Shown in pieces: positions 7,390 to 64,000 of a stretch of DNA of 64,000 nt. This DNA is from a bacterium (lineage in GTDB: Bacteria; Patescibacteriota; Minisyncoccia; UBA6257; GWB1-50-10): contig JAKAIX010000003.1 in the NCBI GenBank assembly GCA_021814165.1, forward strand, positions 14,551 through 78,550, in the 5' to 3' direction. The translations under genes were made by a program, and so were the position numbers. A model generated the notes under the pieces. It was not told where the DNA came from. It was given only the letters and a program-made list of their open reading frames with translations, and ran no database searches. Numbering within the stretch: position 1 is the stretch's first letter; each line of letters opens with the position of its first letter.

Positions 7390-7401
7390 CCATTCACTAC
7401 C

Positions 7402-12137: not shown

Positions 12138-12194
12138 TACTAATATGATATAATGAAGAGTGATACAAATGGTCGATATTTTCTAAAAAAACAA

Positions 12195-12614: not shown

Positions 12615-12729
12615 CGGACGGTGAGAAAAATAAGCGGGCGTCTTTCGAGAGGCGCTCGTTTTTTTCTTACTACGCAATGAAGTCGCTATCGGCTACGGCA
12701 TGTCTGTTGGGTTCATGTGATGTGGTATA

Positions 12730-13182
12730 ATGGAAGATATGAAAAATAACAAAGCTTTCACGTTGATTGAAATGCTCGTCGTCGTTGCCGTCATCGGGCT
12801 TCTTTCATCCGTACTCCTTACGGCTCTTGGCCCCGCGAAGGATAGAGCGAAGGACTCGAGAATCATCCAGGAAATAAATCAGGTGCGATCGCTTGCGGAG
12901 ACGATGTATAACGGCACGTACGCTACGCTGGAGACGCTTCCATCGCCTTCCATTCAGAATCCTAATTTGAAATCGCTTGCGGATGACATCACGGCGCAGG
13001 GGGGAGAACTTAACATAATCAAAGGGCCGGCCCCTTCCACGACCTATGTCGCATATTCGCGTCTCAATATCACGGCGGGGAATCCTTCGGTCCCCCAGGT
13101 GCAATTTTATTGTACGGACAGCGGCGGCAGATCGGGTTTCACGATAACCGAACCGAGTAACGGAGTAAAGTGCCCTCTCTAA
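12730..13182 (+). CDS. second type IV pilin paralog (Ala at -1 of cleavage site)
   Basis: KNNKA|FTLIEMLVVVAVIGLL is a pilin N-terminus with Ala instead of the canonical Gly before Phe+1. Confidence 0.8.
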   Translation: MEDMKNNKAFTLIEMLVVVAVIGLLSSVLLTALGPAKDRAKDSRIIQEINQVRSLAETMYNGTYATLETLPSPSIQNPNLKSLADDITAQGGELNIIKGPAPSTTYVAYSRLNITAGNPSVPQVQFYCTDSGGRSGFTITEPSNGVKCPL

Positions 13183-13197
13183 ACGGTTTCATACGCC

Positions 13198-14094
13198 ATG
13201 GTAACCATCGCGCTTCTTTTTATATTCGGGCTCGCGATAGGAAGTTTCTTGAATGTTGTGGTGTTTCGTTATACGCCCGAGAGAACGGTTTTTGACGGGA
13301 AACGGCTCGGGGGAAGATCTCGATGTCCGCACTGCGGGCACGTACTCGGCGCGGGAGAGCTTGTGCCGATAGTGAGTTTTTTTATCCAGAAAGGAAGATG
13401 CCGATCGTGCGGGCATCGTCTTTCCCTGCAATACCCGCTTGTCGAGCTCGCAAGTGCGGCGGTTTTCGCGTTCGTGCCGCTTTTCCTGAACGCCGCGTAC
13501 GGCATGAGCGGAGCGACGTTCTTCTCCGCGGGAGCGCCACTCTGGTATTACTGCCTTGTTGCGGCATGGGTGCTCGCGATTATAACGTGGATCGTAATTA
13601 CCGCCATCGATCTCCGTCATTACGTGATTCCGAACGAGTTAAACGCTTTTCTTTTAATATTGGGGGTTTGCGGCACGGCGCTTCTCTCCGCGTATCGCGG
13701 GGGCATCTTTCCGTTTCGGATATCGTTTCTCCGGAATTTCGCGCTCCTCTTCTCGTTCTCGGACAATGTCGTTTCGAACCACGTGGCGGGCATGATATTC
13801 GGCGGATTGTTCTTCGCGCTTCTCGTGTTCTTAAGCAGAGGAAAAGGCATGGGGTTCGGCGACGTGAAGCTCGCATTCGCATCCGGGCTTATCCTTGGTT
13901 GGCCCGATATCGCGCTTGCAACGATGCTCTCCTTCATATTGGGAGGAGCTTTCGGAGGAATTCTTATTCTCGCGGGAGCAAAAACGATGAAAGACAAAAT
14001 TCCTTTCGCGCCCTTCCTTGTGCTCGGGTTTCTGCTTACCATATTCTTCGGGCACGCGATAGTGGGAGGATATCTCCGGATATTCGGATTATAA
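13198..14094 (+). CDS. pilD: prepilin peptidase PilD (A24 family)
   Basis: The N-terminal C-x2-C...C-x2-C zinc motif (CPHCGH...CRSCGH) and a multi-TM body with aspartyl-protease regions fit A24. Confidence 0.85.
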   Translation: MVTIALLFIFGLAIGSFLNVVVFRYTPERTVFDGKRLGGRSRCPHCGHVLGAGELVPIVSFFIQKGRCRSCGHRLSLQYPLVELASAAVFAFVPLFLNAAYGMSGATFFSAGAPLWYYCLVAAWVLAIITWIVITAIDLRHYVIPNELNAFLLILGVCGTALLSAYRGGIFPFRISFLRNFALLFSFSDNVVSNHVAGMIFGGLFFALLVFLSRGKGMGFGDVKLAFASGLILGWPDIALATMLSFILGGAFGGILILAGAKTMKDKIPFAPFLVLGFLLTIFFGHAIVGGYLRIFGL

Positions 14095-15781: not shown

Positions 15782-18261
<2,480 letters not shown>

Positions 18262-18398
18262 AACGCGGCGTGTGTCCTCAAAAAATCACATATGTGAGAT
18301 TTTGAGTACATAGCCGTTTTTGTGTGAGCAAAGACAATCCCGTTTCTTATTAAAAACCAATTTGGCATACACGCGCACCTCACGTATAATGCTTGGGT

Positions 18399-18710
18399 AT
18401 GAAGCGCGAAGAGTTGGAAAAACTGGCGGAACTCGCAAGAATCGAACTCCACTCCGAGGAGGAAGAACGGCTCCAGAGAGACATGGAGAACATACTCAAC
18501 TATTTTAAAGAACTTCAGGAGCTTCCGACGGAAGACGTTCTTCCCGTTGCGGGAGGCACGTCGTTTTCGAACGTGTTTCGCGAAGACGTTCCGGGAGAGG
18601 GCATGGATGGCGAGGCCGCGCGCACGGCGTTCCCTGAAACGGAGGACGGGTTTCTTAAGGTGCCGCCGGTGTTCTCAGCAGAAGGCGGATCCTCCTCCGG
18701 AGGAGAGTAA
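18399..18710 (+). CDS. gatC: Asp/Glu-tRNA amidotransferase subunit C
   Basis: Small acidic protein (LAELARIELHSEEEERLQRDMENILNYFKEL) immediately upstream of gatA. A TATAAT box ends 4 nt before the ATG at 18393 (so ~10 nt before the 18399 start used here), so the mRNA is probably leaderless. Confidence 0.8.
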   Translation: MKREELEKLAELARIELHSEEEERLQRDMENILNYFKELQELPTEDVLPVAGGTSFSNVFREDVPGEGMDGEAARTAFPETEDGFLKVPPVFSAEGGSSSGGE

Positions 18711-18712
18711 TT

Positions 18713-20167
18713 ATGAACTTAAAAGAACTTACCATTGCATCGTTGCATGAGAACTTGGTGAAGAAGACATTCTCCGCCCGCGAAGTAACGCGCGATTTTT
18801 TGGATACTGTTCGTGCGGAAGACGAAAAAATCGGAGCGTATCTTTCCGTGTTGGAAGATAGCGCTCTGGAGCAGGCGGATTGCGTCGACTCGATGATTAA
18901 GGAGGGAAAAGAAATCGGCCCTCTCGCGGGAGTCCCGCTTGCGATCAAGGATAATATGCTCATCAAGGGGACGCGTACGACTGCGGCATCGAAAATATTG
19001 GAGCGCTATGAGGCGAGTTACGACGCGGAAGTCATTAAGAAGTTAAAGAAAGAAAATGCCATCTTTCTCGGGAAAACGAATTTGGATGAATTTGCGATGG
19101 GCGCCTCGACTGAGAATTCGGGATTTCACATGACAAAAAATCCGCACGACCTCAAGCGCGTCGCCGGAGGATCATCGGGCGGATCCGCCGCCGCGGTTGC
19201 GGCGCATATGGCACTCGCCGCGCTGGGGTCCGACACGGGGGGATCCGTCCGCCAACCATCGGCATTCTGCGGCGTGGTGGGAATGAAACCAACCTACGGT
19301 GCGGTTTCGCGATCGGGTTTGATCGCAATGGCGTCAAGCCTGGATCAAATAGGGCCGATTACAAAGACGGTTGAGGACGCAGAGATTCTTTTTTCCGCGA
19401 TACGAGGGAACGACACGTACGATGCGACGAGCGCGGAAGATAAAGCTATTCACGAGTTTCGCGAGCTTCCGTCCGAGGCGGTAAAGAAACTAAAAATAGG
19501 GGTTCCGAAGGAATTTTTCGTCGATGGAATGGATAGTAGGGTAACGCATGCCGTTGAGGAGGCGATTGCCCGCTTGAAAACCCTCGGATTTACCTTTAAA
19601 GAAATCAGCTTGCCGCATTCGAAGTATGCGCTCGCGGTATATTACATCATCATGCCTGCGGAGGTATCATCGAATCTCGCGCGGTTCGAAGGAATGCGTT
19701 ACCCGGGAATTACGGAGGTGAGGCGCGAAGTGAATAACCTGAGAGATTTATATTTTAAGACGAGAGGGGAAGGATTCGGTGCCGAACCTAGGAGAAGAGT
19801 CCTCCTCGGAACATACGTACTCTCCGCGGGATATTACGACGCATACTATGCGAAAGCTCAAAAAGTGCGGCGGCTCATCAGAAACGATTTTGAAAAAGCG
19901 TTTCGTAGTGTTGACGTAATCCTCGCGCCCGTTACGCCGACGCCGGCGTTTGCAATAGGGGAAAAAGCTTCCAATCCGCTTGAGATGTACCTTTCCGACA
20001 TCTTCACGGTACAGGCGAATCTTGCGGGTCTTCCAGGGATTTCCATTCCGGTAAAGAAATATACGGTAGGAAGCGGCGAGTTGCCGGTCGGGTTTCAACT
20101 CGTAGGCAAGTCGTTTCACGAGCGCGATCTTTTCGGAATAGGGAAGTTATATCAAAGGGAGGAATAG
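18713..20167 (+). CDS. gatA: Asp/Glu-tRNA amidotransferase subunit A (amidase)
   Basis: The amidase signature GGSSGGSAAAVAA and Ser-cisSer-Lys triad context are present. Length 484 aa. Confidence 0.9.
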   Translation: MNLKELTIASLHENLVKKTFSAREVTRDFLDTVRAEDEKIGAYLSVLEDSALEQADCVDSMIKEGKEIGPLAGVPLAIKDNMLIKGTRTTAASKILERYEASYDAEVIKKLKKENAIFLGKTNLDEFAMGASTENSGFHMTKNPHDLKRVAGGSSGGSAAAVAAHMALAALGSDTGGSVRQPSAFCGVVGMKPTYGAVSRSGLIAMASSLDQIGPITKTVEDAEILFSAIRGNDTYDATSAEDKAIHEFRELPSEAVKKLKIGVPKEFFVDGMDSRVTHAVEEAIARLKTLGFTFKEISLPHSKYALAVYYIIMPAEVSSNLARFEGMRYPGITEVRREVNNLRDLYFKTRGEGFGAEPRRRVLLGTYVLSAGYYDAYYAKAQKVRRLIRNDFEKAFRSVDVILAPVTPTPAFAIGEKASNPLEMYLSDIFTVQANLAGLPGISIPVKKYTVGSGELPVGFQLVGKSFHERDLFGIGKLYQREE

Positions 20168-26650: not shown

Positions 26651-26657
26651 TGTCTTG

Positions 26658-26730
26658 TGCCCCCAGCAGGATTCGAACCTGCGACCTTCTCCTTAAGAGG
26701 GAGCAGCTCTACCAACTGAGCTATAGGGGC
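26658..26730 (-). tRNA. tRNA-Lys (CTT)
   Basis: Reverse complement gcccctatagctcagttggtagagc...ctCTTaa...ggtcgcaggttcgaatcctgctgggggc-a. It is near-identical to the tRNA-Lys(TTT) at 61997 except for the anticodon and the T-loop. Confidence 0.85.
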
Positions 26731-26858
26731 CCTCCTCCGCTTTGATTGTATTATCAAAGCTTCGGACGGGCAAGAATGATGGATCATTATATTCTCGTCC
26801 TTCCGAAGCTCGAATATATTTTCGAGCGAAGGCGGGAGATGTTATCTTATAAATTAAT
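26731..26858. repeat. ~130-bp tRNA-Lys upstream segment duplicated (inverted) at 61866-61996
   Basis: Shared sequence with inner palindromes: cctcctccgctttgattgtattatcaaagcttcggacgggcaagaatgatggatcattatattctcgtccttccgaagctcgaatatatttt. Confidence 0.75.
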
Positions 26859-51987: not shown

Positions 51988-52005
51988 AGACAACGATTCC
52001 GAGGT

Positions 52006-52707
52006 CTATTTACTGAACAATCTTACAAGCCAGCCGAACAAACTGAACGTGCTCTCCTGGGCCTGTATGAAGTTTTGGATCTTCGTTTGTTCCTGCGTTA
52101 ATACCTGAATCTGACTTTGGAGTTGCGTCTTGACCGCTTCATCCTTGACGTTTTCCGATAACTTGTTGAGTTGTTCCAATCTGTCTTGCGTCTGTGCCAC
52201 TTCGCTTCTCAATGTTCCAAGATTCTTGTAATCGGAACCGAAGAGAAATGTTGCAATTTTGTTTTTCGCCTTGACCTCTTCCATCGCCTGTATCGTGGTG
52301 GTTGCGGATTGATTCTGCTCTTCGGCAATCGTGCGCACCTCCTGTCCTATTCCTCCCTTTTCCTTGTCGGCAACATCCAAGAGTCCGTGGACGAAATTCG
52401 AGACCGTACTGCGATGTTCTTCGCCATTGATCTCTCCCTTATCTTCTCGCTCCTGTTCGTTGTTTTGATTCTCTCCTTCCGTCGTCGTTGCGTCCTGCTC
52501 ATGATTTTCCCTTTCCATCGTCGATGTATTCTGTTCCCGATCTTGTTCTTGGTTTTGAACCTTATATCCCGCCTCTATTTTGTCTCCGCCCCCGGATTGT
52601 TCGTTATCTTCCGCGACCGTCTGCTTGTTTTGGCTCGCGGCATGGACGCTGATCGCAACGGCAAAGACAAGAATCCACATTCCTGTTGCTATGACTTTAT
52701 TTTTCAT
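52006..52707 (-). CDS. secreted/membrane-anchored coiled-coil protein with acidic Glu/Asn/Gln-rich region, hypothetical
   Basis: TM/signal helix (VIATGMWILVFAVAISV), an acidic low-complexity segment, and a C-terminal coiled coil. The ORF track extends the frame to 52812. Confidence 0.5.
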   Translation of the reverse strand: MKNKVIATGMWILVFAVAISVHAASQNKQTVAEDNEQSGGGDKIEAGYKVQNQEQDREQNTSTMERENHEQDATTTEGENQNNEQEREDKGEINGEEHRSTVSNFVHGLLDVADKEKGGIGQEVRTIAEEQNQSATTTIQAMEEVKAKNKIATFLFGSDYKNLGTLRSEVAQTQDRLEQLNKLSENVKDEAVKTQLQSQIQVLTQEQTKIQNFIQAQESTFSLFGWLVRLFSK

Positions 52708-52842
52708 ACGTGAAAGAAAAATTACTGAACTGCCGACCTTTCCTCTATTATAGCGGATTAAACAATGGATGTCTCGCTCTCGTTTTGAAAGCTTATGTAC
52801 CGAATAATACAAACCCTCTTTTGTGAAAGAGGGTCTTTTGGT

Positions 52843-53202
52843 CTAAAAATTTGCTCTTGGCATCCCACTCAAAAAAGCAGTGAGCCATAACATCCATGCA
52901 AACAGCGAGAACCGGGTGAAATAGCTCTCATATCTCCCTTGTTTTCTGATAGCAAGAAAAGCCCAGGAGAGATGAAGCAACATTATAAGTAACGCGGAGT
53001 AACCCGAAATGACGTGGGTGCTAAGAGCGAACTTATGTTCCGCTCTTAGAAACATCATTGAAGTTCCGGCGAGATCACATATGAATCCGGAGCTGAATAC
53101 GACGACCATCCATCTCTTCAATCTTCTGCTGATTCTCTCCGACCAGATTGCGGTCGTGTAGAGAACCAGTGCGCTGACTATGAACAATACCGCTATAATC
53201 AT
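52843..53202 (-). CDS. small integral membrane protein (4 TM), hypothetical
   Basis: Strong RBS GGAGGG 6 nt upstream of the ATG at 53202. Four hydrophobic helices. Confidence 0.6.
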   Translation of the reverse strand: MIIAVLFIVSALVLYTTAIWSERISRRLKRWMVVVFSSGFICDLAGTSMMFLRAEHKFALSTHVISGYSALLIMLLHLSWAFLAIRKQGRYESYFTRFSLFAWMLWLTAFLSGMPRANF

Positions 53203-53473
53203 GATCACCCTCCTGGTTATAAGGGAGGACGAGAAAGTGAATGGAGGTACATAGCAGCCATTGTGATTATTCCTCCCAGTATGAGTGACAGAATTATCAC
53301 CCACTCTAGCTTCTTTTCTGATATTGCCATTTCAACCTCAGAATTGTTAAAGATACAGATAAAGTACCACGCTTGCGGCATTCGTCAATGAAAACAATCA
53401 GGGTTCTAAAAATGCAGATCTTTACAAGAAATAGGCAAATAGGCAGAATAGGTAGTAACTAGCTCTTTAGGAG

Positions 53474-54049
53474 ATGAATATGAATATCGACATCAAGTCG
53501 CATCCGGTCTCGGTGTTGCAGCCGTTTTTCAGAGATATAGCCCTTGTTCTCGGTTCATCTGCAATGCTCGAGTTCAGTTACTATAAGTACCAACCGCAGA
53601 CGCTGGAGGACGAGCGAAAACTCTTCAAGGTAAATATTACGGATGTCACTCCGGAATGGTTTTTTGAAATCCATCAGAAGATAGAAGAAGGATACGAACT
53701 TGCGATGCACTCGCGAGTATGGAATGGAAACGAGATGAGGCACATGTTAATGGCTGATATGGCGGTTAAGAACAGCCGGATGGACTTGCTTCCAAGAAGA
53801 ATGTATCTGCCGAGTCTTCAGAAATCCGTACAGCCGCACTACTTCAATTCCGGCCGCTCGTTCCATTCTTATGTCCCCGTTCTGACCTCGGATGATGACG
53901 CGCTAAGAAAATTTTTCTGCGACCTACTCATCCACCACAGCCAGCTTTTTGATGGCAGATGGATGGGACACCGCCTACTGGCAGGCTACGCCGCGTTGCG
54001 ATGGAGTTGCAATACCGGGCAGTATCGCTCCGCCCCAAGATTGGTTTAA
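53474..54049 (+). CDS. hypothetical protein (no recognisable motif)
   Basis: 191-aa ORF with coding-like composition, ending ~120 nt before the glycosyltransferase start. Confidence 0.4.
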   Translation: MNMNIDIKSHPVSVLQPFFRDIALVLGSSAMLEFSYYKYQPQTLEDERKLFKVNITDVTPEWFFEIHQKIEEGYELAMHSRVWNGNEMRHMLMADMAVKNSRMDLLPRRMYLPSLQKSVQPHYFNSGRSFHSYVPVLTSDDDALRKFFCDLLIHHSQLFDGRWMGHRLLAGYAALRWSCNTGQYRSAPRLV

Positions 54050-54167
54050 AGAGAAAGAGGTTGCTTATATCGGCAACCTCTTATTATTTAAGACGATTTC
54101 ATCAGGTTTTCCGTTTTTTCTCGCTTTGCCGTTGTGGTATCATGGAGCAGTAATAGCGCGTGATATT

Positions 54168-55274
54168 ATGGTTATTTCAATTCCCTCATTCGGGTTGAAC
54201 ACGACGGGCGGCGACAGAGTGATTGTATCGCTTGCAAACGGTCTTGCGGAGAGAGGGCATACGGTCTATGTGGTGAATCTCGGGGCGGATCCCATTCCGT
54301 ATCGCGTTTCTCCGAAAGTCCGCATCACGCGGGTCCCGTTTGATGAAGATAAAAAGGATTTTTTGAACTTCGTCGTGAAGGGAATGACGGAACTCGCGAA
54401 TCATCTTCCCGATTCGGATGTCTACCTCGCGAACTGGGTATTCACCGTCTTCTCATGTGTCGCGAAGCGCGGCAAGGGAAAGACGGTATTTCTTTCCCAG
54501 GCGGATGAGATGTATGCGTTTAAGGACCGATCACTCAGCGTTTTAAACGGACTTTCCTACGGGGCATACCTTCTTCGCGCCCCGGTAATCGTGCCGTCCG
54601 ATTCGTTGCGGAAAATAGTGAAAAAAAGATTCGGCAGCGAGGCCCTGATTATTCCTCCTTGTGTCGATACGAGCGTTTTCAAGCCGGGAGCGCCGCACCG
54701 CTCCGCCGTGTTGAAGCTGCTCTTCGTGGGCGACATAGAGAGTGAAAACAAGGGGCTTGCCATACTTCTTTCCGCATGCGAGAAGATAAAAAACATCCGC
54801 TTTGAACTGCACGTTGCCACTCAGCGGAACATTACGCCGAACGACATCGCGCCGCGGGCGAAGTTTCCCGTTGTCATTCATAAGCCGGAAAACGACGAAG
54901 CGCTCGCCCGAGTATACCGTTCAAGTGATATATTCTTTCATCTTTCGAGGAAAGAAGGGTTCGGTCTCACTCTCCTTGAAGCGATGGCATGCGGATGCGT
55001 GAGCATCGTCACGGATTCCGGAGGCGTAAATGATTTTGCGGTGTCTAAGGGGAACTGTATTTTTGTAAAAAGGGACGGCAATTCCGTGGCGAGGGCGATT
55101 CGTTCCGTTTATGCGGATTTGAGGCGTCTGAGAAAAACACTCGGGAAAAACGCGGTCCTCACGGCGGCGCGCTATACGGAAAAGGAGATGACCGACCGTT
55201 TCGAGGATTTTTTCTTCGAGATATCGTCGAAAAAGCATGGCAAAAAGGAAAATAGGAATATACGTCGCTCATGA
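54168..55274 (+). CDS. glycosyltransferase family 1 (GT4)
   Basis: The N-terminal GT-B start MVISIPSFGLNTTGGDRVIVSLANGLAERGHTVYVV and the C-terminal motif EGFGLTLLEAMACGCVSIVTDSGG are present. Confidence 0.8.
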   Translation: MVISIPSFGLNTTGGDRVIVSLANGLAERGHTVYVVNLGADPIPYRVSPKVRITRVPFDEDKKDFLNFVVKGMTELANHLPDSDVYLANWVFTVFSCVAKRGKGKTVFLSQADEMYAFKDRSLSVLNGLSYGAYLLRAPVIVPSDSLRKIVKKRFGSEALIIPPCVDTSVFKPGAPHRSAVLKLLFVGDIESENKGLAILLSACEKIKNIRFELHVATQRNITPNDIAPRAKFPVVIHKPENDEALARVYRSSDIFFHLSRKEGFGLTLLEAMACGCVSIVTDSGGVNDFAVSKGNCIFVKRDGNSVARAIRSVYADLRRLRKTLGKNAVLTAARYTEKEMTDRFEDFFFEISSKKHGKKENRNIRRS

Positions 55275-55917
55275 CGACGACGCAATTATAGGAGCGGGAG
55301 GAACGATCGTAAAAACGCGGGCGGAAGGAGGGGAAGTATACGTGGTTATCGTCACCGACGGGGCAAACTCGCATTCGAGCGTTTTTGGCTTTGAGGAACA
55401 CCCGAGTAAGGAAGAAGTGAAGGCAAAACGGAAAGAAGAAATAAAAAAGGCGATGCGCGTGCTTGATGTTTCTCCCGAATTCGTCTTTTTTCTCGACCGA
55501 CCGGACGGAAGAAACGATATCTGGGGAGGGGATGAGAAACTTTTTGGAGACATTCTCGCGATAACCGAGCGCGAGCGCCCGGACGCCGTCTATTCGAACT
55601 ATACGTTCGATCCGCATACTGATCACGTGGCGGTAGGGAAGATAGTGGAGGGCATACTCGGGAGAATGAGCCGGACGCCGGAAGCTTTCCAATTCGCGAT
55701 TCAGGGGATTATCGAACGCCCCGATCGGGTTGTTCCGATTGCGGATGTGGTGGAGAGAAAAAGACAAGCGCTCTTCGAGATGAAAAGCCAGGTGCTTTCG
55801 GATCCGTACGAAAACGAAGGGTGGCGGAAACAGCCGCGCCCCATCCTGTCGGAAGATGAGGTGCAAAAGTTTTTGAGCGACAGAGAAACGTTCCGGGTTT
55901 TAAAAACCATCGGATGA
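55237..55917 (+). CDS. PIG-L/LmbE-family N-acetylglucosaminyl deacetylase
   Basis: IGIYVAHDDDAIIGAGGTIVK (HxDD motif) and the downstream HTDH metal-binding motif are present. Confidence 0.8.
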   Translation: MAKRKIGIYVAHDDDAIIGAGGTIVKTRAEGGEVYVVIVTDGANSHSSVFGFEEHPSKEEVKAKRKEEIKKAMRVLDVSPEFVFFLDRPDGRNDIWGGDEKLFGDILAITERERPDAVYSNYTFDPHTDHVAVGKIVEGILGRMSRTPEAFQFAIQGIIERPDRVVPIADVVERKRQALFEMKSQVLSDPYENEGWRKQPRPILSEDEVQKFLSDRETFRVLKTIG

Positions 55918-56052
55918 TTTTGATTGGAACGTCGCTATCCGACCAGGCTCGAATCCATCCGTCGTAATCCTATTACTCTTGGTGATGGGATGCGTGAAAC
56001 TTCCTGGTAAAAAATAAGCACCCCTCTTTCGAATGAAGGAAGGGCGCTAGTT

Positions 56053-56427
56053 TTAGATAAAATTTAAGAAGTAGTGCAGAACAGCTCCTGCGACGAGTGC
56101 TGCAGCAGCTCTCAATATCATCTCCTTATAGAGAGTGATTAGTTTCCTGCCCCTTGTAGCTCCTTCCTCTTCCGCCTCGATTTCAAGGTGGTTGTGATTC
56201 CTTTTCACCCTGTAATCGTGTTTCACGAAAGCGAAAAGGAGGTATATTCCTGCGCCTTGAGAAAGCGTGAGTGCCGGGACGAAGTGGAATGTTCCCGTCA
56301 CGAACCACAGCCATAGCACTTTTAGCACGAAGCCGTGGATTAGCGAACGGAGGAGGAATCCTCCCGCCCCGGTAAGGTGAACGTCGAAGAAATTAAGAAA
56401 CTTCTTCTTTCCTTTTAGCGTTTTCAA
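56053..56427 (-). CDS. small membrane protein (3 TM), hypothetical; TTG start behind RBS GGAGA
   Basis: Sits downstream of conserved promoter P1. RBS ataGGAGAatagaaTTG. Hydrophobic helices GGFLLRSLIHGFVLKVLWLWFV and AAAALVAGAVLHYFL. Confidence 0.5.
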   Translation of the reverse strand: MKTLKGKKKFLNFFDVHLTGAGGFLLRSLIHGFVLKVLWLWFVTGTFHFVPALTLSQGAGIYLLFAFVKHDYRVKRNHNHLEIEAEEEGATRGRKLITLYKEMILRAAAALVAGAVLHYFLNFI

Positions 56428-56476
56428 TTCTATTCTCCTATGAAATTGGTAAAAATCTAAATGTTTAAGTGAAAAT

Positions 56477-56505
56477 AAAATAGCACATTTCTGTGCCATA
56501 GTCAA
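56477..56505 (-). promoter_or_regulatory. conserved sigma70-like promoter P1 (TTGACT-17-TATTTT) with embedded CACAGAAATGTG palindrome
   Basis: Reverse complement TTGACTatggcacagaaatgtgcTATTTT. The same 25-nt core recurs at 58637-58665 and 61030-61053. Confidence 0.6.
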
Positions 56506-56560
56506 CCTCAACTTTACCTCTCTGTTAATTTCTCCCTTAAGATCCGCCCATTCTTGCTTC

Positions 56561-57343
56561 TTAAAGCTTTTCAAATATGTAACCTCTGGCGCGAATTGCA
56601 GGTACGATCTTCCGCAATACGTCGTAGCTTGCCGGAGCGTTCGGTCCTCCTATGTGCATTAAAATAACACCGTTGTTCTTTAATCGCGCAAGAATGTGGT
56701 TCGCTATTCTGTTTCCGTCCGGATTAAAAGGGTCAGACGCAAATATATTTCCTTCGTTGATCTCGAGTCCTAAGCTTTGTACGAGCGCGTCGTCTCCCTT
56801 TCCGCTGCAAAGACCGGGGTATCGGAAGTAGCGGGGTTTTTGTCCGGTAATATGCTCCAGAATCGTCTGTGTTTCTTCGATCTGCGCTATCTTTTCCTGG
56901 GGAGTAACGAGGGGAGTAAGCCAATAGCAGTGAGGAATGAAACCGGACTCGTCATAGCTGTGATTTTGGAAAGAAAACATTGTTGTGCTGGCAAGAGAAC
57001 GCATGAGATCGGGATATGTCTCGGCAAAAAGCCCAGATACAAAGAAGGTGGCGGGAATCCGTTCTTTCTCCAGATATGCGAAGATGCGCGGATCATACCA
57101 TTCTTGTACCAGCCCTTTTTGGTACTTACGTAGCATGGCCTCGTTCATGTCCATATCCATGGTGAGGAAGATGGTTTTGTGGGATTCTGCGATCGTGCCG
57201 CTTGCAACCGCCATAACGGTAGATACCGGCATATATGAGGAGGGATCCGCACGTCTCTGGTATGCCGAATGGAACGCGGGAATGTAGGCACATAACAAAA
57301 ATATGAATACGGCACCGGGTAGAAGAAAAATTAAATGTTTCAT
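56561..57343 (-). CDS. polysaccharide deacetylase (NodB/CE4 family), secreted
   Basis: Signal peptide present. The motifs TFFVSG (Asp/His motif 1 region), HSYDE/H-x-H-like and RYPGL are characteristic of CE4. Confidence 0.75.
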   Translation of the reverse strand: MKHLIFLLPGAVFIFLLCAYIPAFHSAYQRRADPSSYMPVSTVMAVASGTIAESHKTIFLTMDMDMNEAMLRKYQKGLVQEWYDPRIFAYLEKERIPATFFVSGLFAETYPDLMRSLASTTMFSFQNHSYDESGFIPHCYWLTPLVTPQEKIAQIEETQTILEHITGQKPRYFRYPGLCSGKGDDALVQSLGLEINEGNIFASDPFNPDGNRIANHILARLKNNGVILMHIGGPNAPASYDVLRKIVPAIRARGYIFEKL

Positions 57344-57662
57344 GTACTGCCGCGATTTGATTTAAATGTCATTATAATGGCACAGCTTATACAAAGACAC
57401 AAAGAGGGAGGAGAAATTCGAATCCTGCATGAATGCATCAAGACGACATCCGAAAAGCAAGAGCTCCTCGGTCGCACGATAACAAGAATCGACCACCCCT
57501 CTATGTGGACAAGTTCAGAGCCGTGGAGTGGGGGAAAATTGAAAAGAGACCCACATTTCTACTGGTTAATTATTCATTTCGGAGGGTCGCTTAGGATCCT
57601 TAAAAAATAAAGAGCAGCCTTCAATAAAGCTGCCCTCATAATTACTTGATTATTAGCTAAGA

Positions 57663-57992
57663 CTAAGAGAGAAGTTCTCTTGCCTTAGTTTCAACAACTT
57701 TTTTCAGCTTATCCTCGTCTACAAGGGTTCTGACGATAGGATTCGAAGGTTGAATGTTTAAAACAGCCTTCTTTTCTTCCACTCGTATGCTACCCTCTAT
57801 CTTGGCGCGTTTGAACCCTTGTTTGACTTTGAAAGAGAAAATCATCAAGTTGCCGATCCGCCAGAGTTTTTCCGGATCCTTTATTTCCACCTTCTTATCA
57901 GAAAAATCTTTCTTCATTAGTTCGGAAAGAAAGTTATCGATCCTTTTGACTGCCTCGGTTGTACCGAGATTGTGTGATATTGTTATTTCCAA
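57663..57992 (-). CDS. polyhydroxyalkanoic-acid-system family protein-like (TIGR02610-type small protein), function unknown
   Basis: MEITISHNLGTTEAVKRIDNFLSELMKK...KIEGSIRVEEKKAVLNIQ parallels the small PHA-system family (M.I.I.H.LG...EG.i.vee..i.v.l). A terminator follows at 57611-57645. Confidence 0.5.
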   Translation of the reverse strand: MEITISHNLGTTEAVKRIDNFLSELMKKDFSDKKVEIKDPEKLWRIGNLMIFSFKVKQGFKRAKIEGSIRVEEKKAVLNIQPSNPIVRTLVDEDKLKKVVETKARELLS

Positions 57993-58013
57993 GTTGTCCT
58001 CCTTAGGAATTGT

Positions 58014-58532
58014 TTATTTACTGTGTGTAACTTTGTGTATGACAATTTCGATGCCAAAATTCGGATCGGTATATTTTCTGAGGAGAAGATCTTTTATTTC
58101 AAGCACGTATGCAGCCTCGTTTGGATCTGAGAGTTCCTGGATAGCCTCTTCTACTGTTTTACCGGTAGTGCTTATGTTTCTGTTAAACCAGGTGTTCGAG
58201 CGCCAAAGGCTAAATCTCACCTTTTCAAGATCGTATTGTTTTATCATACCGATTTCCTGACCATCGGCTGCTATTAATATAAAACGAAGGTTTTCTATCC
58301 TGTCCGGTCTTCTCAGACGCCGATTCCACGCACTTGTCCATGGATAGCGGGACATTAGATCAGAGTCGGCCTTCTGAACCTGCGGTACTTTATGCAATTT
58401 TTTGATCTCTGGGTATCTCTTCAGAAAAGGATATTCCTTCAAAAGCGCATCGATTCGTATATTCAGTATGCTTTTTTTGACAACATCGATGATCATTTCT
58501 GCGAGTAATTCTGTTTCTGTCTTATCTCTCAT
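58014..58532 (-). CDS. hypothetical protein (172 aa) behind conserved promoter P2
   Basis: RBS AAGGAG 7 nt before the ATG (MRDKTETELL). Coding-like composition; no recognised motif. Confidence 0.6.
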   Translation of the reverse strand: MRDKTETELLAEMIIDVVKKSILNIRIDALLKEYPFLKRYPEIKKLHKVPQVQKADSDLMSRYPWTSAWNRRLRRPDRIENLRFILIAADGQEIGMIKQYDLEKVRFSLWRSNTWFNRNISTTGKTVEEAIQELSDPNEAAYVLEIKDLLLRKYTDPNFGIEIVIHKVTHSK

Positions 58533-58636
58533 AGTTTTCTCCTTGTGACATCCAGCCACAATTTACGAAGTGGGTATTCCACCCGCTTCAGAGTTGTTGA
58601 ATTTGTTAAATAACACCCGATAGATTGGGTGTAAAG

Positions 58637-58665
58637 AAAATAACACATTTCTGTTCTATTGTCAA
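58637..58665 (-). promoter_or_regulatory. conserved promoter P2 (TTGACA-17-TATTTT) with ACAGAAATGTGT core
   Basis: Reverse complement TTGACAatagaacagaaatgtgtTATTTT. Followed by a ~100-nt 5' UTR containing the hairpin acacccaatctatcgggtgt. Confidence 0.6.
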
Positions 58666-58818
58666 CTTTAATTCCGAGCTGTACGTGAACTTCGAACCGT
58701 AATAATGGACGGCTGGCACTCTTACGAAATGTGCGCGACCGTCAAAATGCTCCGCCGGGAGTTATCGTTCGATTGGATTGATTAAAGATTTTCTTCAATC
58801 TGATAATATGTACGTTCG

Positions 58819-59331
58819 TCATATTTTTCGGCTGTCGTATGCCCAGTGCAGAACCGCCTGCCTTTGTGCAGGCCGGCAAGTTAAATCTTTCGGCCGGCAA
58901 TTCTTTTTGATTTGCGATATGTGTCGGCTGATCGCTTTCCACCGCTTGATCTGCCGTTCGTCTTCGCCCGGAAGCCGCCTGCCCATGTAGTAGCGACAAT
59001 ACCACTGGAACCAGCCGCGAGGGTCGTGCTTTTCGTTGATCCAACCTTTCTCAACCCAGACTTTAAGCGGCTGGCTAGCATGCTTATGGAAAAAGTTGAG
59101 TGTGTCGTCGTGATGTTCTAGTGAAAGCTTGGCGCGAGTAAACCAGTCTTTTGGAAATTCCTTTTTGCAGTCGGTCATATATTTGCCGCCAAAGACGCCG
59201 AGCGCGAGCATCTGTTTTGGCGTAAGCTCCGGCTTGAAATCCGGATGAAAATTCCGTCCTACCGGTTCGGTAAGCTGGTACTTGTAACCTTTCTGAAATT
59301 TATCGTTTACTTTTACGGTCTTTTTTCTCAT
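58819..59331 (-). CDS. conserved hypothetical basic protein (GWFQWYCRYYMGRR motif)
   Basis: 170 aa, Lys/Arg/Trp-rich, with no TM helix. It is upstream of and probably co-transcribed with the P2 unit. Confidence 0.55.
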   Translation of the reverse strand: MRKKTVKVNDKFQKGYKYQLTEPVGRNFHPDFKPELTPKQMLALGVFGGKYMTDCKKEFPKDWFTRAKLSLEHHDDTLNFFHKHASQPLKVWVEKGWINEKHDPRGWFQWYCRYYMGRRLPGEDERQIKRWKAISRHISQIKKNCRPKDLTCRPAQRQAVLHWAYDSRKI

Positions 59332-59340
59332 AAATATTTG

Positions 59341-59799
59341 TTATCGGATTACAAGATATATGGCCAAGAGAAGCAATCCGCCCCACCAGCCGATATCGGA
59401 GACAATGAGGCTTGCCATGATTTTCCTTTGCCAGGAAGCCGGCAGGAGTTCTCCGGACAGGCCCTCTTTCTCACGCTTCAATAAAAACGGACTGACTTTG
59501 AAAGACAGAAAATAGCCGTTCAAGATGAGGGCGAGCGCGATCACCGCATGGATGAGCGGAATGCCGGCAAAGCTTTGCTCGCGGTAGAAAATCATACCGC
59601 CGATAATAGCGAGCATAATGCCGGCCCAGATCATCGGCTTAGTCACTTTGTGCGTGCGTGTAGTAGCTTCGGTCCAGTATGATGACTTTCGTCCGAGAAA
59701 ACCGTGGATATCTATGACCGTTACCGCTCCAAGGCCGATCACGAAACCGGCGAAGAATAGAAATAGTCCGATTGTATCGAGCCATTCGACCGAGCTCAT
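59341..59799 (-). CDS. integral membrane protein (4 TM), hypothetical
   Basis: Hydrophobic helices (IGLFLFFAGFVIGLGAVTVI; MIWAGIMLAIIGGMIFY; IHAVIALALILNGYFL; GWWGGLLLLAIYLVI). Confidence 0.55.
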   Translation of the reverse strand: MSSVEWLDTIGLFLFFAGFVIGLGAVTVIDIHGFLGRKSSYWTEATTRTHKVTKPMIWAGIMLAIIGGMIFYREQSFAGIPLIHAVIALALILNGYFLSFKVSPFLLKREKEGLSGELLPASWQRKIMASLIVSDIGWWGGLLLLAIYLVIR

Positions 59800-59808
59800 G
59801 ATAATAGA

Positions 59809-60285
59809 TTAATTGAGAACATAAATTGAATAATTTAAGTACATGGCAAAACTAACCCATGCTATGTAAGGCACCAAGAGCCATGCCGTCGGACGAGATA
59901 TTTTTGCAAAAGCGATGATCGTGGCAAGAATAGCAAGCCAGAGGAATATGATCTCAATAAATGCGCCGCCCGGAGAATGCAGACCGAAAAAGATAATTGA
60001 CCAAAGTGTGTTCAATACCAACTGGCCGAGAAATATGCCGAGGGCAATTTTTACATCCCTTCTCACAAGCCCCTTTTTCCAGACCAGAAACGCGGCGATG
60101 CCCATGAGCGTGTAGAGTGTCGTCCAAACCGGACCGAAGACCCACGCAGGAGGATTTAGAACCGGTTTGACGATCCCGGCATACCAAGTCGGGATGGCCG
60201 AGGCGGTAAAAATCGAACCGATTATTCCAGCCGCTTCTGATACCACGATCGCAATAACCAATTTGAAGAAATTATTGAGCTTCAT
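59809..60285 (-). CDS. tspO: TspO/MBR family tryptophan-rich sensory protein
   Basis: 5-TM protein with PAWVFGPVWTTLYTLMGIAAFLVW (W-x-PP-x-W-x-F-x3-W-x2-LY signature) and 158 aa. Confidence 0.75.
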   Translation of the reverse strand: MKLNNFFKLVIAIVVSEAAGIIGSIFTASAIPTWYAGIVKPVLNPPAWVFGPVWTTLYTLMGIAAFLVWKKGLVRRDVKIALGIFLGQLVLNTLWSIIFFGLHSPGGAFIEIIFLWLAILATIIAFAKISRPTAWLLVPYIAWVSFAMYLNYSIYVLN

Positions 60286-60467
60286 AATTCAATTTTACCA
60301 TTTACTGCTATTTTCGTCCTAGTCTACCGGGGCGAGTTTGGTGGTATTTGTCAATCTAGCTTAGTGGATAGAACGCGTGAGGACTTGTTTGGTGTAAAAT
60401 AATGAACCGCTAAGAAAAAATCTTAGCGGTAAGCAGTCGGTCTGCTTAGTCCTTTGAAGTTATACAC

Positions 60468-60962
60468 CTAGGAGAAGAGGGGGCCGGCGATACTAACACC
60501 GATAATGTGTGGTGAGAGGCTCTTTTCCGATCTCGGTTGATAAGAGACGATTTTCCAATCTTCTCTTATAGCAAGAGCCCCATGTTCTGTGCCGACTATA
60601 TTGTGTGCTGTTGCCCAGAAAAGTTGTTCGAGGATATCGGCCTTCTCTTCAAGCGGCTCAAGCTTGCTTTTGAACTTTTTGCATTCTTCCGATACTCTTT
60701 CTAATCCGTCGCCTTTTTCGTCTCTGAGCGCGTCACGCAGAAGACCGGGCAGATCCATTTTCTTGTGAAACAGTCCGTGTTCTGTTTTTAGAGTGTTTAT
60801 TTCTTGGACCATTTTCGAATGTAGAGAATAAATCTTCTTCATTTCATCGTCTGCCTCTCCGACGATCCTTTCTTCCTCGAGTTTTTCTCCCGCTTTTTCA
60901 GGGGCGATGATATCAGTAACACCATTGATCTCATTAGAGAGACCCTGCAAAAAACTAGTCAT
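60468..60962 (-). CDS. acidic coiled-coil hypothetical protein behind conserved motif P3
   Basis: RBS AAGGAGG 7 nt before the ATG. Glu/Lys-rich helical protein with no recognised domain. Confidence 0.5.
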   Translation of the reverse strand: MTSFLQGLSNEINGVTDIIAPEKAGEKLEEERIVGEADDEMKKIYSLHSKMVQEINTLKTEHGLFHKKMDLPGLLRDALRDEKGDGLERVSEECKKFKSKLEPLEEKADILEQLFWATAHNIVGTEHGALAIREDWKIVSYQPRSEKSLSPHIIGVSIAGPLFS

Positions 60963-61029
60963 TTGTGACCTCCTTCGGTTGATGGTTAGTTAGATGGATA
61001 AGGAATTATGAAATTGCAATAATAGAGTG

Positions 61030-61053
61030 ACACATTTCTATGCTATTTGTCAA
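61030..61053 (-). promoter_or_regulatory. third copy of the conserved CACATTTCT-N-TGTCAAC motif (P3; -10 element degenerate)
   Basis: Plus strand gacacatttctatgctatttgtcaacg. The TTGACA -35 and the AGAAATGTGT core are retained, but the -10 is poor (CACTCT) or displaced (TATTAT, 23-nt spacing). Confidence 0.45.
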
Positions 61054-61236
61054 CGTTTCGGCGGAGTTTCACCCGTATCTGAACTCTGCAGGTAGGACTC
61101 GCTTCTCGCGTTGCTCGAAACACTCAAAAAACATAGTCGTTTCACTCCTTGTTTTTGGGTGCCTCCGGTTCAAGCTCTACCTGTACGAAACAGAAACCAA
61201 AATACCGCACCATAAAGATGCGGCATTTTGATTTTT

Positions 61237-61308
61237 GCTCCGGCGGTAGGATTCGAACCTACAACCATCTCCTTAACAGGGAGCCGCACTACCATTGTGC
61301 TACGCCGG
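61237..61308 (-). tRNA. tRNA-Asn (GTT)
   Basis: Reverse complement tccggcg-ta-gcacaatggtagtgc...ctGTTaa...gtagg-ttcgaat-cctac-cgccgga-g. A terminator hairpin gccgcatctttatggtgcggtatttt lies downstream. Confidence 0.85.
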
Positions 61309-61451
61309 AATACAGCTATAAGAATAATAACAACAAGGCCCGATGTAAAGTACTCGGGCCCGTTATTCTAGTTACTTAGGAGTTTTAATATTTATTTTTT
61401 GAATTGTTTGTTAAGGTTGCTAATTTATCGTAATTCAATTATAACGTTCTT

Positions 61452-61865: not shown

Positions 61866-61996
61866 GAATTCTAACGAGCCCCTATAGCTTCCTCCTTCGC
61901 TCAAAAATATATTCGAGCTTCGGAAGGACGAGAATATAATGATCCATCATTCTTGCCCGTCCGAAGCTTTGATAATACAATCAAAGCGGAGGAAGG
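61866..61996. repeat. inverted duplicate of the tRNA-Lys upstream segment (partner of 26731-26858)
   Basis: Near-identical to the reverse complement of 26731-26858 (ttcctccttcgctcaaaaatatattcgagcttcggaaggacgagaatataatgatccatcattcttgcccgtccgaagctttgataatacaatcaaagcggaggaagg). It is preceded at 61868-61881 by a 12-nt echo of the tRNA 5' end (gcccctatagct). Confidence 0.75.
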
Positions 61997-62069
61997 GCCC
62001 CTATAGCTCAGTTGGTAGAGCTGCTCCCTTTTAAGGAGAAGGTCGCAGGTTCGAGTCCTGCTGGGGGCA
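61997..62069 (+). tRNA. tRNA-Lys (TTT)
   Basis: gcccctatagctcagttggtagagc...ctTTTaa...ggtcgcaggttcgagtcctgctgggggc-a. CCA is not encoded. Confidence 0.85.
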
Positions 62070-62074
62070 CAAGA

Positions 62075-62110
62075 TAAAATCTCCGGATTCACTCCGGAGA
62101 TTTTATTTTC
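62075..62110 (+). terminator. rho-independent terminator after tRNA-Lys
   Basis: aaaatctccgga-ttcac-tccggagatttt followed by a T-run. Confidence 0.75.
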
Positions 62111-62226
62111 CTCTATTGACAATAAAAACTGGTTATGGTGAACTACGCTTAGCTACTAAATAACACTTACTTGGAGCTTCCGAAACGTAGTAGGAAGTGG
62201 AGGGTAAGTAGGAAAAGGAGTACACA

Positions 62227-62826
62227 ATGGCAAAATCATCGATTGTTCGAGGTCTGAGCTTTGGCTCAGAATTTTTTACCTGTTTCTTCAAGGAGGTCTT
62301 GGAATTTAGCGGTACGGAAGAAGAAGTATTTGATGCAATAAAAACAGGGAGTCCACTCATCAAAAAATGGGCGAGTGAAGCGATCGCTCACACGAGAGAG
62401 ATTCCGTCTCTCTATAATCTAATGGGTGCTGCCCGTGTGGAACAAACTGTCCCCACTATTGCGGAGGAAAACTTTCCCATCCAACCAGAAGACCTTATCA
62501 AGGAAAAGAGCTACAAGAAGTTTTACTCCATGAAAACCTATGAGTTTGAGGATATGGCTAAAAAAATGAACAAAGAAGGTTACCGTCCTGCAACCATTCG
62601 CGAAATGCTCTCTTGGGCTGTTGAAAATTGGGATGAAAAATACAGTGAATTAAGAATCTTTGCGATTGGTTCACATTATGCCGATCCAATACTACACGCT
62701 TGTGTTCCTGTCCTTCTCGCTCCGATGAGGGGCGGATCTATGCCTAGGAGAGTTCCTAAATTACTACTCAAAAATCCAAAACATTTTGCCACCATGGAAG
62801 ATATTTTTCTCGGTGTCGCGAGATAA
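62227..62826 (+). CDS. hypothetical protein carried on the tRNA-Lys-bounded cassette
   Basis: Strong RBS AAAGGAG 8 nt before the ATG, and an upstream TTGACA box. Low-GC composition, 199 aa, no recognised motif. Confidence 0.5.
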   Translation: MAKSSIVRGLSFGSEFFTCFFKEVLEFSGTEEEVFDAIKTGSPLIKKWASEAIAHTREIPSLYNLMGAARVEQTVPTIAEENFPIQPEDLIKEKSYKKFYSMKTYEFEDMAKKMNKEGYRPATIREMLSWAVENWDEKYSELRIFAIGSHYADPILHACVPVLLAPMRGGSMPRRVPKLLLKNPKHFATMEDIFLGVAR

Positions 62827-62910
62827 CTTTATAAAAGAATCATTGGCTAAGCCGGAGCATTTTTACCCCGGCTTAACTGTTTTTATGGGCTTGCTTTTTA
62901 TCAACTCCGC

Positions 62911-62960
62911 CTCCCTTTTAAGGAGAAGGTCGCAGGTTCGAGTCCTGCTGGGGGCACAAA
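62911..62960 (+). repeat. direct repeat of the tRNA-Lys 3' half (att-like integration scar)
   Basis: ctcccttttaaggagaaggtcgcaggttcgagtcctgctgggggcacaa is identical to tRNA-Lys(TTT) positions 62020-62071, from the anticodon stem through 2 nt past the 3' end. It is followed by a terminator hairpin gcccacc-ttacga-ggtgggt-TTTTT. Confidence 0.8.
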
Positions 62961-63025
62961 AGTTAACTACTTAGGCAAAAATGCCCACCTTACGAGGTGG
63001 GTGTTTTTGTGGTATGATCTCTTAG

Positions 63026-64000
63026 ATGGGGTATTATACTGAGTATTTAAATAAAAACTTGGACTTTAACGGTTTGTCGTCTGAGAGGAAAAACCAGCTC
63101 AGGCAGATCTCAGCACTTCGGGAGGGCAGAGATGTCTTAGTTATTGCCGCTGACCTTAATAAGCAAATACCGCTTATCTCAATCGGTTACAGCGACCTTC
63201 TACCAATTAAAGATCAGATATCTGAACTAAGAGGTGACAAGATTGATATTATACTCGAAACGCCGGGAGGCTCCGGCGAGACAGCGGAAGATATTGTTAA
63301 GTTAGTACGTGAAAGATATACCGAGGTTGGGATCATAATACCTGGCTACGCAAAAAGCGCAGGAACAATAATGGCTATGTCAGGTGATGAAATACTTATG
63401 AGTTCTTCTTCTATATCATCTTTAGGACCAATTGATGCGCAACTATTCTGGCAGGGTAAGATATTTTCTGCAGGAGCTTTTCTAGAGGGACTTAAAAAGA
63501 TACAAAAGGAGGTTGAAGAAACGGGTACTTTAAATAAGACTTATATACCAATTTTGCAGGGCATATCGCCAGGAGAAATTCAGAATGCACAGAATGCTTT
63601 GGATTTCGCACGGATTCTCGTAAAGGAATGGCTTACTCGGTACAAATTCAAGTCGTGGCAAACCCATCTTAAAAATAAGCAGGCAGTGACGCAAGAAGAA
63701 AAAGAATTCTGTGCAAATGAAATTGCTGGAAAATTATGTGACCACCAGCATTGGCTTACACACGCTAGGTCAATCAGATTAAAGGACCTTGAAGATATGG
63801 GTTTGAGAATCACGGATTATTCTAAGATTGATAAATTAGCTGAGGCTATTGACCGTTACTACACACTACTCCAAATGTCATTCTCCTCACCTTTGTATAA
63901 GTTATTTGAAACACCAACAACTCAAATACAGAAATTTCTCGCTCCGATAGTGACAGCACCTCAACAAGATAAACCAAGTGACCAAAACGCAAATATTGCA
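63026..64000 (+). CDS. SDH/S49-type periplasmic serine protease-like protein (ClpP-fold), 3'-truncated by the window end
   Basis: Not in the ORF track (no stop before the window end). Manual translation gives MGYYTEYLNK...DIILETPGGSGETAEDIVKL...YAKSAGTIMAMSGDEILM, with ETPGG and AKSAGT motifs as in the serine dehydrogenase proteinase / signal-peptide-peptidase-like ClpP-fold family. The TATGAT -10 box lies 7 nt before the ATG. Low-GC DNA. Confidence 0.55.
   Translation, partial: MGYYTEYLNKNLDFNGLSSERKNQLRQISALREGRDVLVIAADLNKQIPLISIGYSDLLPIKDQISELRGDKIDIILETPGGSGETAEDIVKLVRERYTEVGIIIPGYAKSAGTIMAMSGDEILMSSSSISSLGPIDAQLFWQGKIFSAGAFLEGLKKIQKEVEETGTLNKTYIPILQGISPGEIQNAQNALDFARILVKEWLTRYKFKSWQTHLKNKQAVTQEEKEFCANEIAGKLCDHQHWLTHARSIRLKDLEDMGLRITDYSKIDKLAEAIDRYYTLLQMSFSSPLYKLFETPTTQIQKFLAPIVTAPQQDKPSDQNANIA

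Follow-up and report, generated by a model that had tools for sequence, protein, structure and literature searches.

The window analysed here, a 64,000-nt stretch of bacterial DNA (contig JAKAIX010000003.1, positions 14,551 to 78,550 of the forward strand), contains near its right-hand end a tRNA-Lys(UUU) gene, a partial duplicate of that gene and a run of low-GC accessory genes. The intact tRNA-Lys(UUU) gene occupies 61997-62069 on the plus strand; it is called by ARAGORN as tRNA-Lys(ttt) at 61997-62070 and is scored at 70.7 bits by the Rfam tRNA model, over the equivalent of 61997-62069. This agrees with a first-pass annotation made from the sequence of the window, which had also described an exact 50-nt copy of the tRNA 3' half further downstream. 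The duplicate is real and exact, but it measures 49 nt: copy 1 (attL-like, 62024-62072, plus strand) and copy 2 (attR-like, 62911-62959, plus strand) are identical at 49/49 positions, while the supposed 50th base differs (G62073 versus A62960) and identity falls off sharply beyond the block. The first base of the repeat is the second of the anticodon stem, and its last lies 3 nt beyond the discriminator base; copy 2 corresponds to the tRNA 3' part without the 5' half. Both UUU-specific bases are present in copy 2. No tRNA is called at copy 2 by ARAGORN, and its Rfam tRNA score of 34.8 bits is owed entirely to the 3' half. We considered whether copy 2 could be a decayed full-length tRNA gene and rejected this, as its apparent 5' acceptor strand is the T-run of a terminator (pairing through G-U wobble) and no D arm is present. 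Dinucleotide shuffles of the window gave an expectation of 0 chance matches to the 49-nt repeat. Only one other near-match exists in the window, at 26655-26703 (minus strand), with 2 mismatches; it belongs to the 3' part of the tRNA-Lys(ctt) paralog. The sequence is therefore not a dispersed repeat, a possibility the first-pass annotation had allowed for.

The two copies enclose 838 bp (62073-62910) with a GC content of 0.416, versus 0.510 for positions 1-56000 of the window. Including one copy of the repeat, the unit amounts to 887 bp and carries a single gene, a plus-strand open reading frame (ORF) for a 199-aa protein at 62227-62826, preceded by the strong AGGAG ribosome-binding site that had been noted for it. 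The promoter proposed for this gene was borne out only in part: a TTGACA hexamer is found at 62116-62121, but no acceptable -10 box follows it and a promoter scan lists none there.

Contig L001 (GCA_027423885.1; window position = L001 position + 52226) matches the window at 100% identity across their 11.8-kb overlap and continues for 8.8 kb beyond the window end. On this longer sequence, GC content stays at 0.37-0.43 from the tRNA gene to approximately L001 14250 and is then at least 0.52. The low-GC segment, referred to here as the islet, comprises the ~4.4 kb between the tRNA-Lys gene and map (window 62073 to ~66481, L001 9847-14255) and has a GC content of 0.407, versus 0.51-0.52 for its flanks. 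The first-pass annotation had taken an 840-bp segment as acquired; a low-GC segment of 838 bp does lie between the repeats, but the acquired region is five times larger. Its expectation of further cargo past position 64000 was correct, with L001 providing the rest of a protease gene, an ORF of 61 aa (11979-12164) and three additional ORFs (12526-13212, 13267-13587 and 13598-14086). The islet ends at a right junction, GCACAA (L001 14256-14261), followed by map (Peptidase_M24; L001 14306-15049) and then by other housekeeping genes. When up to 3 mismatches were allowed, no third copy of the 49-mer was found in L001, including the 8.8 kb past the window end, and the tandem island for which a further downstream copy had been suggested as a check thus has no such copy there. 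Two degenerate candidates for third and fourth att copies (L001 12331-12362 and 14232-14263) were rejected as chance-level by a shuffle test: their mutual similarity scored 24, with shuffles giving 19 +/- 2.4 and a maximum of 30, and their similarity to the tRNA was also at chance level. The 199-aa protein is encoded, residue for residue, on 12 public contigs that represent several assemblies and one population. Eleven of these are long (up to 775 kb), and all 11 show the identical arrangement of the locus.

To what extent the islet is specific to this lineage was judged from two relatives. When one genome per GTDB species was scanned with the 49-mer, L005 was the only locus recovered; its gene order is DUF5671 gene, tRNA-Lys(UUU), hairpin terminator and map, with no insert. 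The L005 tRNA-Lys gene begins straight after the stop codon of the DUF5671 gene, with no spacer, and its flanking genes encode proteins sharing 82% and 78% identity with their source counterparts. The two sequences become homologous again at GCACAAAAAG and the terminator just upstream of map (L001 14256 onward), and the ~4.4 kb from the tRNA end to this point (L001 9847-14255) is wholly absent from L005. A metagenome scan with the map protein yielded a second relative, L032 (Ga0082335_1000059; 74% identity), which has the same neighbours and likewise no insert. The L032 tRNA-Lys(UUU) gene (7830-7903) sits in the same slot between DUF5671 and map, but is inverted, and it shares one bidirectional terminator with the DUF5671 gene. 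As both relatives have tRNA-Lys directly beside map, the 4.4-kb segment is lineage-specific; the comparison of related genomes proposed in the first-pass annotation accordingly finds the segment missing from both, and not universally present as an ancestral feature. The three map proteins are roughly equidistant (73-78%), and with two relatives lacking the insert, a single gain in the source lineage is the simplest history.

Hairpin terminators are a recurrent feature of the locus. One lies directly 3' of the intact tRNA (62071-62109, plus strand; inverted-repeat arms 62071-62087 and 62093-62109) and is of the type native to tRNA-Lys genes of the clade, as its homology to the terminators of tRNA-Lys(CUU) and L032 indicates. 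Another hairpin with a T-run, a probable terminator, follows the 199-aa gene (62843-62876, plus strand; a terminator-like site at L001 10617-10629 plus the T-run). A second hairpin terminator is located 24 nt past repeat copy 2 (62984-63005, plus strand), coinciding with terminator-like sites on both strands at L001 10758-10777. Finally, an ancestral terminator stands beside map, after the GCACAA remnant (L001 14266-14291), and is the homolog of the L005 tRNA terminator. Every tRNA end or remnant, namely the intact tRNA, copy 2 and GCACAA, thus has its own hairpin terminator behind it. Such nested terminators are the expected product of serial insertion beside a tRNA, with the newest unit nearest the gene.

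The tRNA-Lys(UUU) gene also shares its surroundings with the paralogous tRNA-Lys(CUU) locus (26657-26832, minus strand; ARAGORN and alignment), where the gene itself, tRNA-Lys(ctt), lies at 26657-26730 with the same leader before it and a related terminator just downstream, at lower coordinates. A palindromic leader upstream of tRNA-Lys(UUU) (61894-61993, plus strand) is 99% identical over 100 nt to 26832-26733, and the leader together with the tRNA (61870-62075) has a fold z of -4.4. The UUU and CUU genes have homologous terminators behind them, with ~85% identity as estimated from the alignment and compensatory changes in the stem; that of the UUU gene also resembles the terminator after the L032 tRNA-Lys(UUU) gene. 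The leader identity and the homologous terminators imply that the locus has exchanged sequence with its CUU paralog. A 12-nt copy of the tRNA-Lys 5' end (GCCCCTATAGCT) is present at 61878-61889 (plus strand), 119 nt upstream of the gene's own copy and immediately beyond the block common to this and the tRNA-Lys(CUU) locus. In the predicted fold, this orphan copy pairs with the 3' acceptor strand of the tRNA, displacing the true 5' strand. Together, the leader identity and the orphan 5' copy point to gene conversion or template switching between the tRNA-Lys paralogs.

The 199-aa protein (62227-62826) has no match in Pfam, PHROGs, PADLOC or NCBIfam, and a word-indexed search found only the protein itself. 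In contrast to its first-pass description as a protein of unknown function, an exhaustive HMMER search placed it among 89 relatives, at no more than 41% identity, in a family with a verified diversity-generating retroelement (DGR) target. An AlphaFold2 model built from the alignment of these relatives reached a pLDDT of 87, and the protein is modelled as N-terminal helices followed by a domain with the C-type-lectin fold, and is homologous to DGR variable proteins. Among the relatives, P0005 (E 9e-16) adjoins a bAvd gene and a reverse-transcriptase gene. The C-terminal variable repeat of P0005 (125 nt) differs from a downstream template repeat at 16 positions, all of them template adenines, and such adenine-only differences are the signature of a DGR. 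The complete DGR is found on a Hainich groundwater contig (L008 6001-8300), with the P0005 variable repeat at 6482-6607, the template repeat at 6945-7070, bAvd at 7078-7392 on the minus strand and the reverse transcriptase downstream. DGR variable proteins with a C-type-lectin fold are described as abundant in bacteria of the Candidate Phyla Radiation (CPR; PMC8144416, PMC11661182). The 199-aa protein resembles these in its fold and in its homology to P0005, but its gene differs in that the 73 kb examined contain neither a template repeat nor Avd nor a reverse transcriptase: no template repeat for it was detected in the window or the L001 tail, and no RVT or Avd family is listed among the called genes. 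The C-terminus of the protein departs from the family consensus in the alignment of relatives. It is probably an orphan or frozen ligand-binding member of the DGR-target family.

Immediately beyond copy 2, the window contains the 5' 975 nt (63026-64000, plus strand) of an SDH-type ClpP-like protease gene, which runs off the window end as had been noted. The complete gene encodes 391 aa (L001 10800-11975), including a C-terminal zinc ribbon. Its N-terminal 160 residues match Pfam SDH_protease PF01972 (E 2.4e-15, 56-57 bits, cut-off 31.3), and the protein also matches phrog_11747 (E 5e-49); against the NCBIfam equivalog NF047768 it scores 64 bits, below the 250-bit cut-off. The islet protease is therefore like the SDH-type ClpP-like proteinases in its N-terminal 160 residues, which exceed the family cut-off, and unlike them in its long zinc-ribbon C-terminal extension, its paired small ORF and its uncharacterised sub-family. 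Relatives at 56-71% identity number in the thousands and occur in Parcubacteria, Acidobacteria, Planctomycetota and Ignavibacteriales; none was confirmed in viral contigs. A -10-like box 7 nt before the ATG, with no Shine-Dalgarno sequence, is seen in four divergent loci, and the gene is probably leaderless, as proposed. In every locus examined, the protease (383-391 aa) is followed by a conserved ORF of 60-63 aa ending in SYTTA or TYTSS (motif ...LRKIVLE.TE...SYTTA; loci including L013, L015, L017 and L018). Most of the protease loci examined have variable neighbours, including restriction-modification, Fic and SocA/Panacea genes. The presence of the protease and small-ORF pair in several phyla, and in variable or defence-type neighbourhoods, is the mark of mobile cargo. 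PADLOC gives no match to the module, and a full-text search found no literature on its function; we consider it a candidate uncharacterised defence or toxin-antitoxin-like module.

The three distal ORFs, of 215/228, 106 and 155/162 aa (depending on the start codon), have no family assignment. The closest homolog of the 162-aa protein, at 78% identity, is found in an unrelated context. On another CPR contig, L102, a large serine recombinase gene (Resolvase, Recombinase and Zn_ribbon_recom domains; 18070-19392) lies ~7.6 kb from this closest homolog of the 162-aa protein, with no evident link between the two. In the contexts examined, none of the homologs of the 199-aa protein, the protease or the 162-aa protein adjoins a tRNA gene or an integrase-bearing island. 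As the islet genes are not tRNA-linked elsewhere, the islet is a mosaic of accessory modules as opposed to a conserved element.

On balance, we think it reasonably probable that the segment from window 62073 to ~66481 is a horizontally acquired, integrase-less islet built by at least two insertions, in which the 838-bp unit resembles a cis-mobilisable element (CIME). We infer the following order of events, together with the involvement of an integrase and the crossover position. The distal 3.5 kb, comprising the protease with its 61-aa partner and the three small ORFs, would first have been placed directly after the tRNA. This part would have brought its own terminator, and of the former tRNA end just GCACAA would have stayed next to the old terminator. 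Thereafter, a unit of 887 bp (the 838 bp together with one 49-nt repeat) would have recombined with the tRNA, carrying the anticodon-stem-to-3'-end part of a tRNA, a tRNA-Lys-type terminator and one gene. Crossover within the 49-nt block common to both, probably at the anticodon loop, would have rebuilt an intact tRNA (attL) and moved the old 3' part 887 bp downstream (attR). Under the integrase sublocation rule, an element with an anticodon-loop crossover reportedly must carry the block from the anticodon stem to the 3' end in order to restore the tRNA. The repeat block, which extends from the anticodon stem to the tRNA 3' end, fits such a crossover. The unit is too small to encode a recombinase, and it would thus be either what is left of a larger element or a cassette that is not autonomous and depends on an integrase supplied in trans.

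Several observations weigh against this proposal. No integrase, recombinase or transposase family is listed for the called genes of the 64-kb window and the 8.8 kb beyond, which extends the first-pass remark that the bounded segment has no integrase, and a Pfam scan of the islet proteins revealed none either; no excisionase or pseudogene remnant is seen in the islet, the window or the 8.8 kb. The first-pass reading of the repeat as the scar of a tRNA-targeting integrase is therefore sound as regards the tRNA 3' duplication, but the involvement of an integrase is only inferred. Viral contigs and JGI metagenomes yielded no phage or other element with the att sequence: the 49-mer had 0 matches in the viral contigs, as did a 31-mer with a degenerate T-loop base, and a 38-mer had 0 matches in the JGI metagenomes. 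Neither empty nor single-occupancy alleles were seen among the long contigs. The outer right junction shares just GCACAA (plus one G) with the tRNA end, and on its left side a comparison of 49 nt with the tRNA half gave 33% identity by hand count from the alignment, a random level. Such a short match, ~6 nt, cannot establish site-specific recombination of the distal part. The locus also shows integrase-independent exchange with the CUU paralog. Furthermore, the terminator behind copy 1 would be expected to come from the element under this proposal, but it is homologous to native tRNA-Lys terminators. Integration therefore requires the post-tRNA arm of the 838-bp unit to descend from the tRNA-Lys locus of a related organism, which is plausible.

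The native type of the terminator in this arm leaves room for integrase-free routes, be it Campbell-type recombination over the 49 nt or local rearrangement. In the former, a circular or looped 887-bp DNA bearing the tRNA-Lys 3' part and terminator of a related organism would have entered by a RecA-dependent single crossover. We regard this as rather unlikely, despite the fact that the repeat copies are identical across the whole shared block, that the arm after copy 1 resembles the native tRNA-Lys terminator of a related lineage, and that no integrase is nearby at a locus that demonstrably recombines with its paralog. For efficient homologous recombination, 49 nt of identity is near the lower limit, and it would have to be coincidental that the block has its left edge at the anticodon stem, in agreement with the sublocation rule. 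Under local rearrangement, tRNA-Lys sequences would instead have given rise to the partial tRNA copy among themselves, through template switching, duplication or ectopic recombination; the copy would then lie in a single 4.4-kb insertion or an ancestral variable region, with no separate 838-bp element. The orphan 12-nt 5' copy, the leader shared with the CUU gene and the inverted tRNA of L032 do attest to non-integrase rearrangement at the site. Copy 2 has both UUU-specific bases, however, and so did not come from the CUU gene, its identity with copy 1 is complete inside the block and drops sharply outside, and between the copies terminator, gene and terminator follow one another in tidy order. 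This explanation is therefore deemed unlikely.

An ancestral islet lost from both L005 and L032, for example across the GCACAA microhomology, is very improbable. Although the L005 junction exactly fits a deletion between the tRNA GGGGGCACAA and the distal GTGCACAA, and the comparison rests on two relatives, these are independent and both without the islet, whose GC content is 10 points under that of the genome and whose genes have homologs in unrelated contexts elsewhere. An assembly mis-join at the tRNA repeat might be suspected, since the sequences are metagenome-assembled and short-k assembly does break at the repeat (contig L004). We find this extremely improbable, given that the arrangement is identical in the 11 long contigs from several assemblies, up to 775 kb in length, and that the window matches L001 without a difference over 11.8 kb.

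The short contig L004, a Logan contig (SRR13299515; 3 samples), covers the unit itself. It is 917 bp long, equal to 887 + 30 nt (k-1), with identical first and last 30 nt. Its length is ambiguous, as a repeat-bounded chromosomal segment should give an 898-bp unitig at k=31, while a circle adds no new 31-mers. L004 may have arisen from a circular or tandem form, or be an oddity of how the graph was simplified. We also considered that the 887-bp unit could be an active integrase-less single-gene cassette that uses the tRNA-Lys half-site as its recombination site and is excised as a circle and moved in trans by a tRNA-Lys-specific integrase, encoded elsewhere or by visiting elements, an idea we consider decidedly unlikely. 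If true, the cassette would shuttle genes for ligand-binding proteins of the C-type-lectin fold among CPR bacteria, in an integron-like economy on tRNA att sites, and L004, whose ends overlap by k-1 nt, would be the trace of the circle.

Among known systems, the closest comparison for the islet, built by serial insertion as we propose, is with CIMEs, which are defined as elements that keep attL and attR but are without integration and transfer genes (PMC5704250). The 887-bp unit corresponds to this definition, with att-like repeats retained and integration and transfer genes missing. As in the tandem accretion described for streptococci (ICESt1/ICE_515_tRNALys; PMC5704250), the att-like repeats are at a tRNA-Lys 3' end and the unit sits in tandem with other decayed cargo at the same site. 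In contrast to CIMEs, the unit is just 887 bp with one gene, and has neither an integrase nor a partner element; no backbone remnants of an integrative and conjugative element (ICE) or an integrative and mobilisable element (IME) were detected, and no partner was found. The host, inferred from gene content to have a CPR-type genome, also sets it apart, conjugative elements being poorly known in such bacteria. A CIME is also one that derives from an ICE or IME by decay and is mobilised in cis once it has accreted with an incoming element, an origin and mobility that the 887-bp unit may share. With classical tRNA genomic islands and prophages, the islet shares the intact tRNA at one end and the duplicated anticodon-stem-to-3' block at the other, as well as deviant GC content and an empty site in related genomes; it differs in lacking their defining integrase gene and in its outer boundary of ~6 nt identity. 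An integron gene cassette was considered and rejected, the bounding repeat being a tRNA half as opposed to an imperfect-palindrome attC, with no IntI.

The locus is an ordinary kind of integration scar, notable for its very small size and the lack of an integrase, and it does not overturn current understanding. Its interest lies in that little has been charted of mobile elements, and of where they integrate, in CPR/Patescibacteria, for which it provides a clean and comparatively verified case: the site is seen both filled and empty, the att-like repeats are exact and three terminators are nested. It shows tRNA-Lys to be an insertion hot spot in a CPR-type genome, and that an att-flanked unit, even a very small one, is able to persist in the absence of a recombinase. 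The cargo offers two leads, namely an orphan member of a DGR-target family carried on an island, and a strongly conserved, widely transferred and apparently leaderless module of the protease with its 61-aa partner, which current defence-system catalogues do not contain.

To the left of the locus, positions 52000-61230 have a lower GC content (0.43-0.47) and contain many small ORFs without families, as well as a gene for an archaeo-eukaryotic primase (AEP)-like protein at 53474-54049. This low-GC region ends at the 3' end of a tRNA-Asn gene (61237-61309, minus strand), and the genes to the left of tRNA-Asn differ in L032. It may represent a second variable region or island. A tRNA-Asn island in this position was tested and rejected, the only repeat (57729-57747, 16/19 nt) lying inside an ORF and not being significant. 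A motif of up to 43 nt occurs in three intergenic copies within this low-GC region (56469-56511, 58629-58671 and 61021-61047). Read on the minus strand, it consists of TTGACT, 17 nt containing the palindrome GCACAGAAATGTGC, and TATTTT, and it looks like a shared promoter and operator for three minus-strand genes of unknown function.

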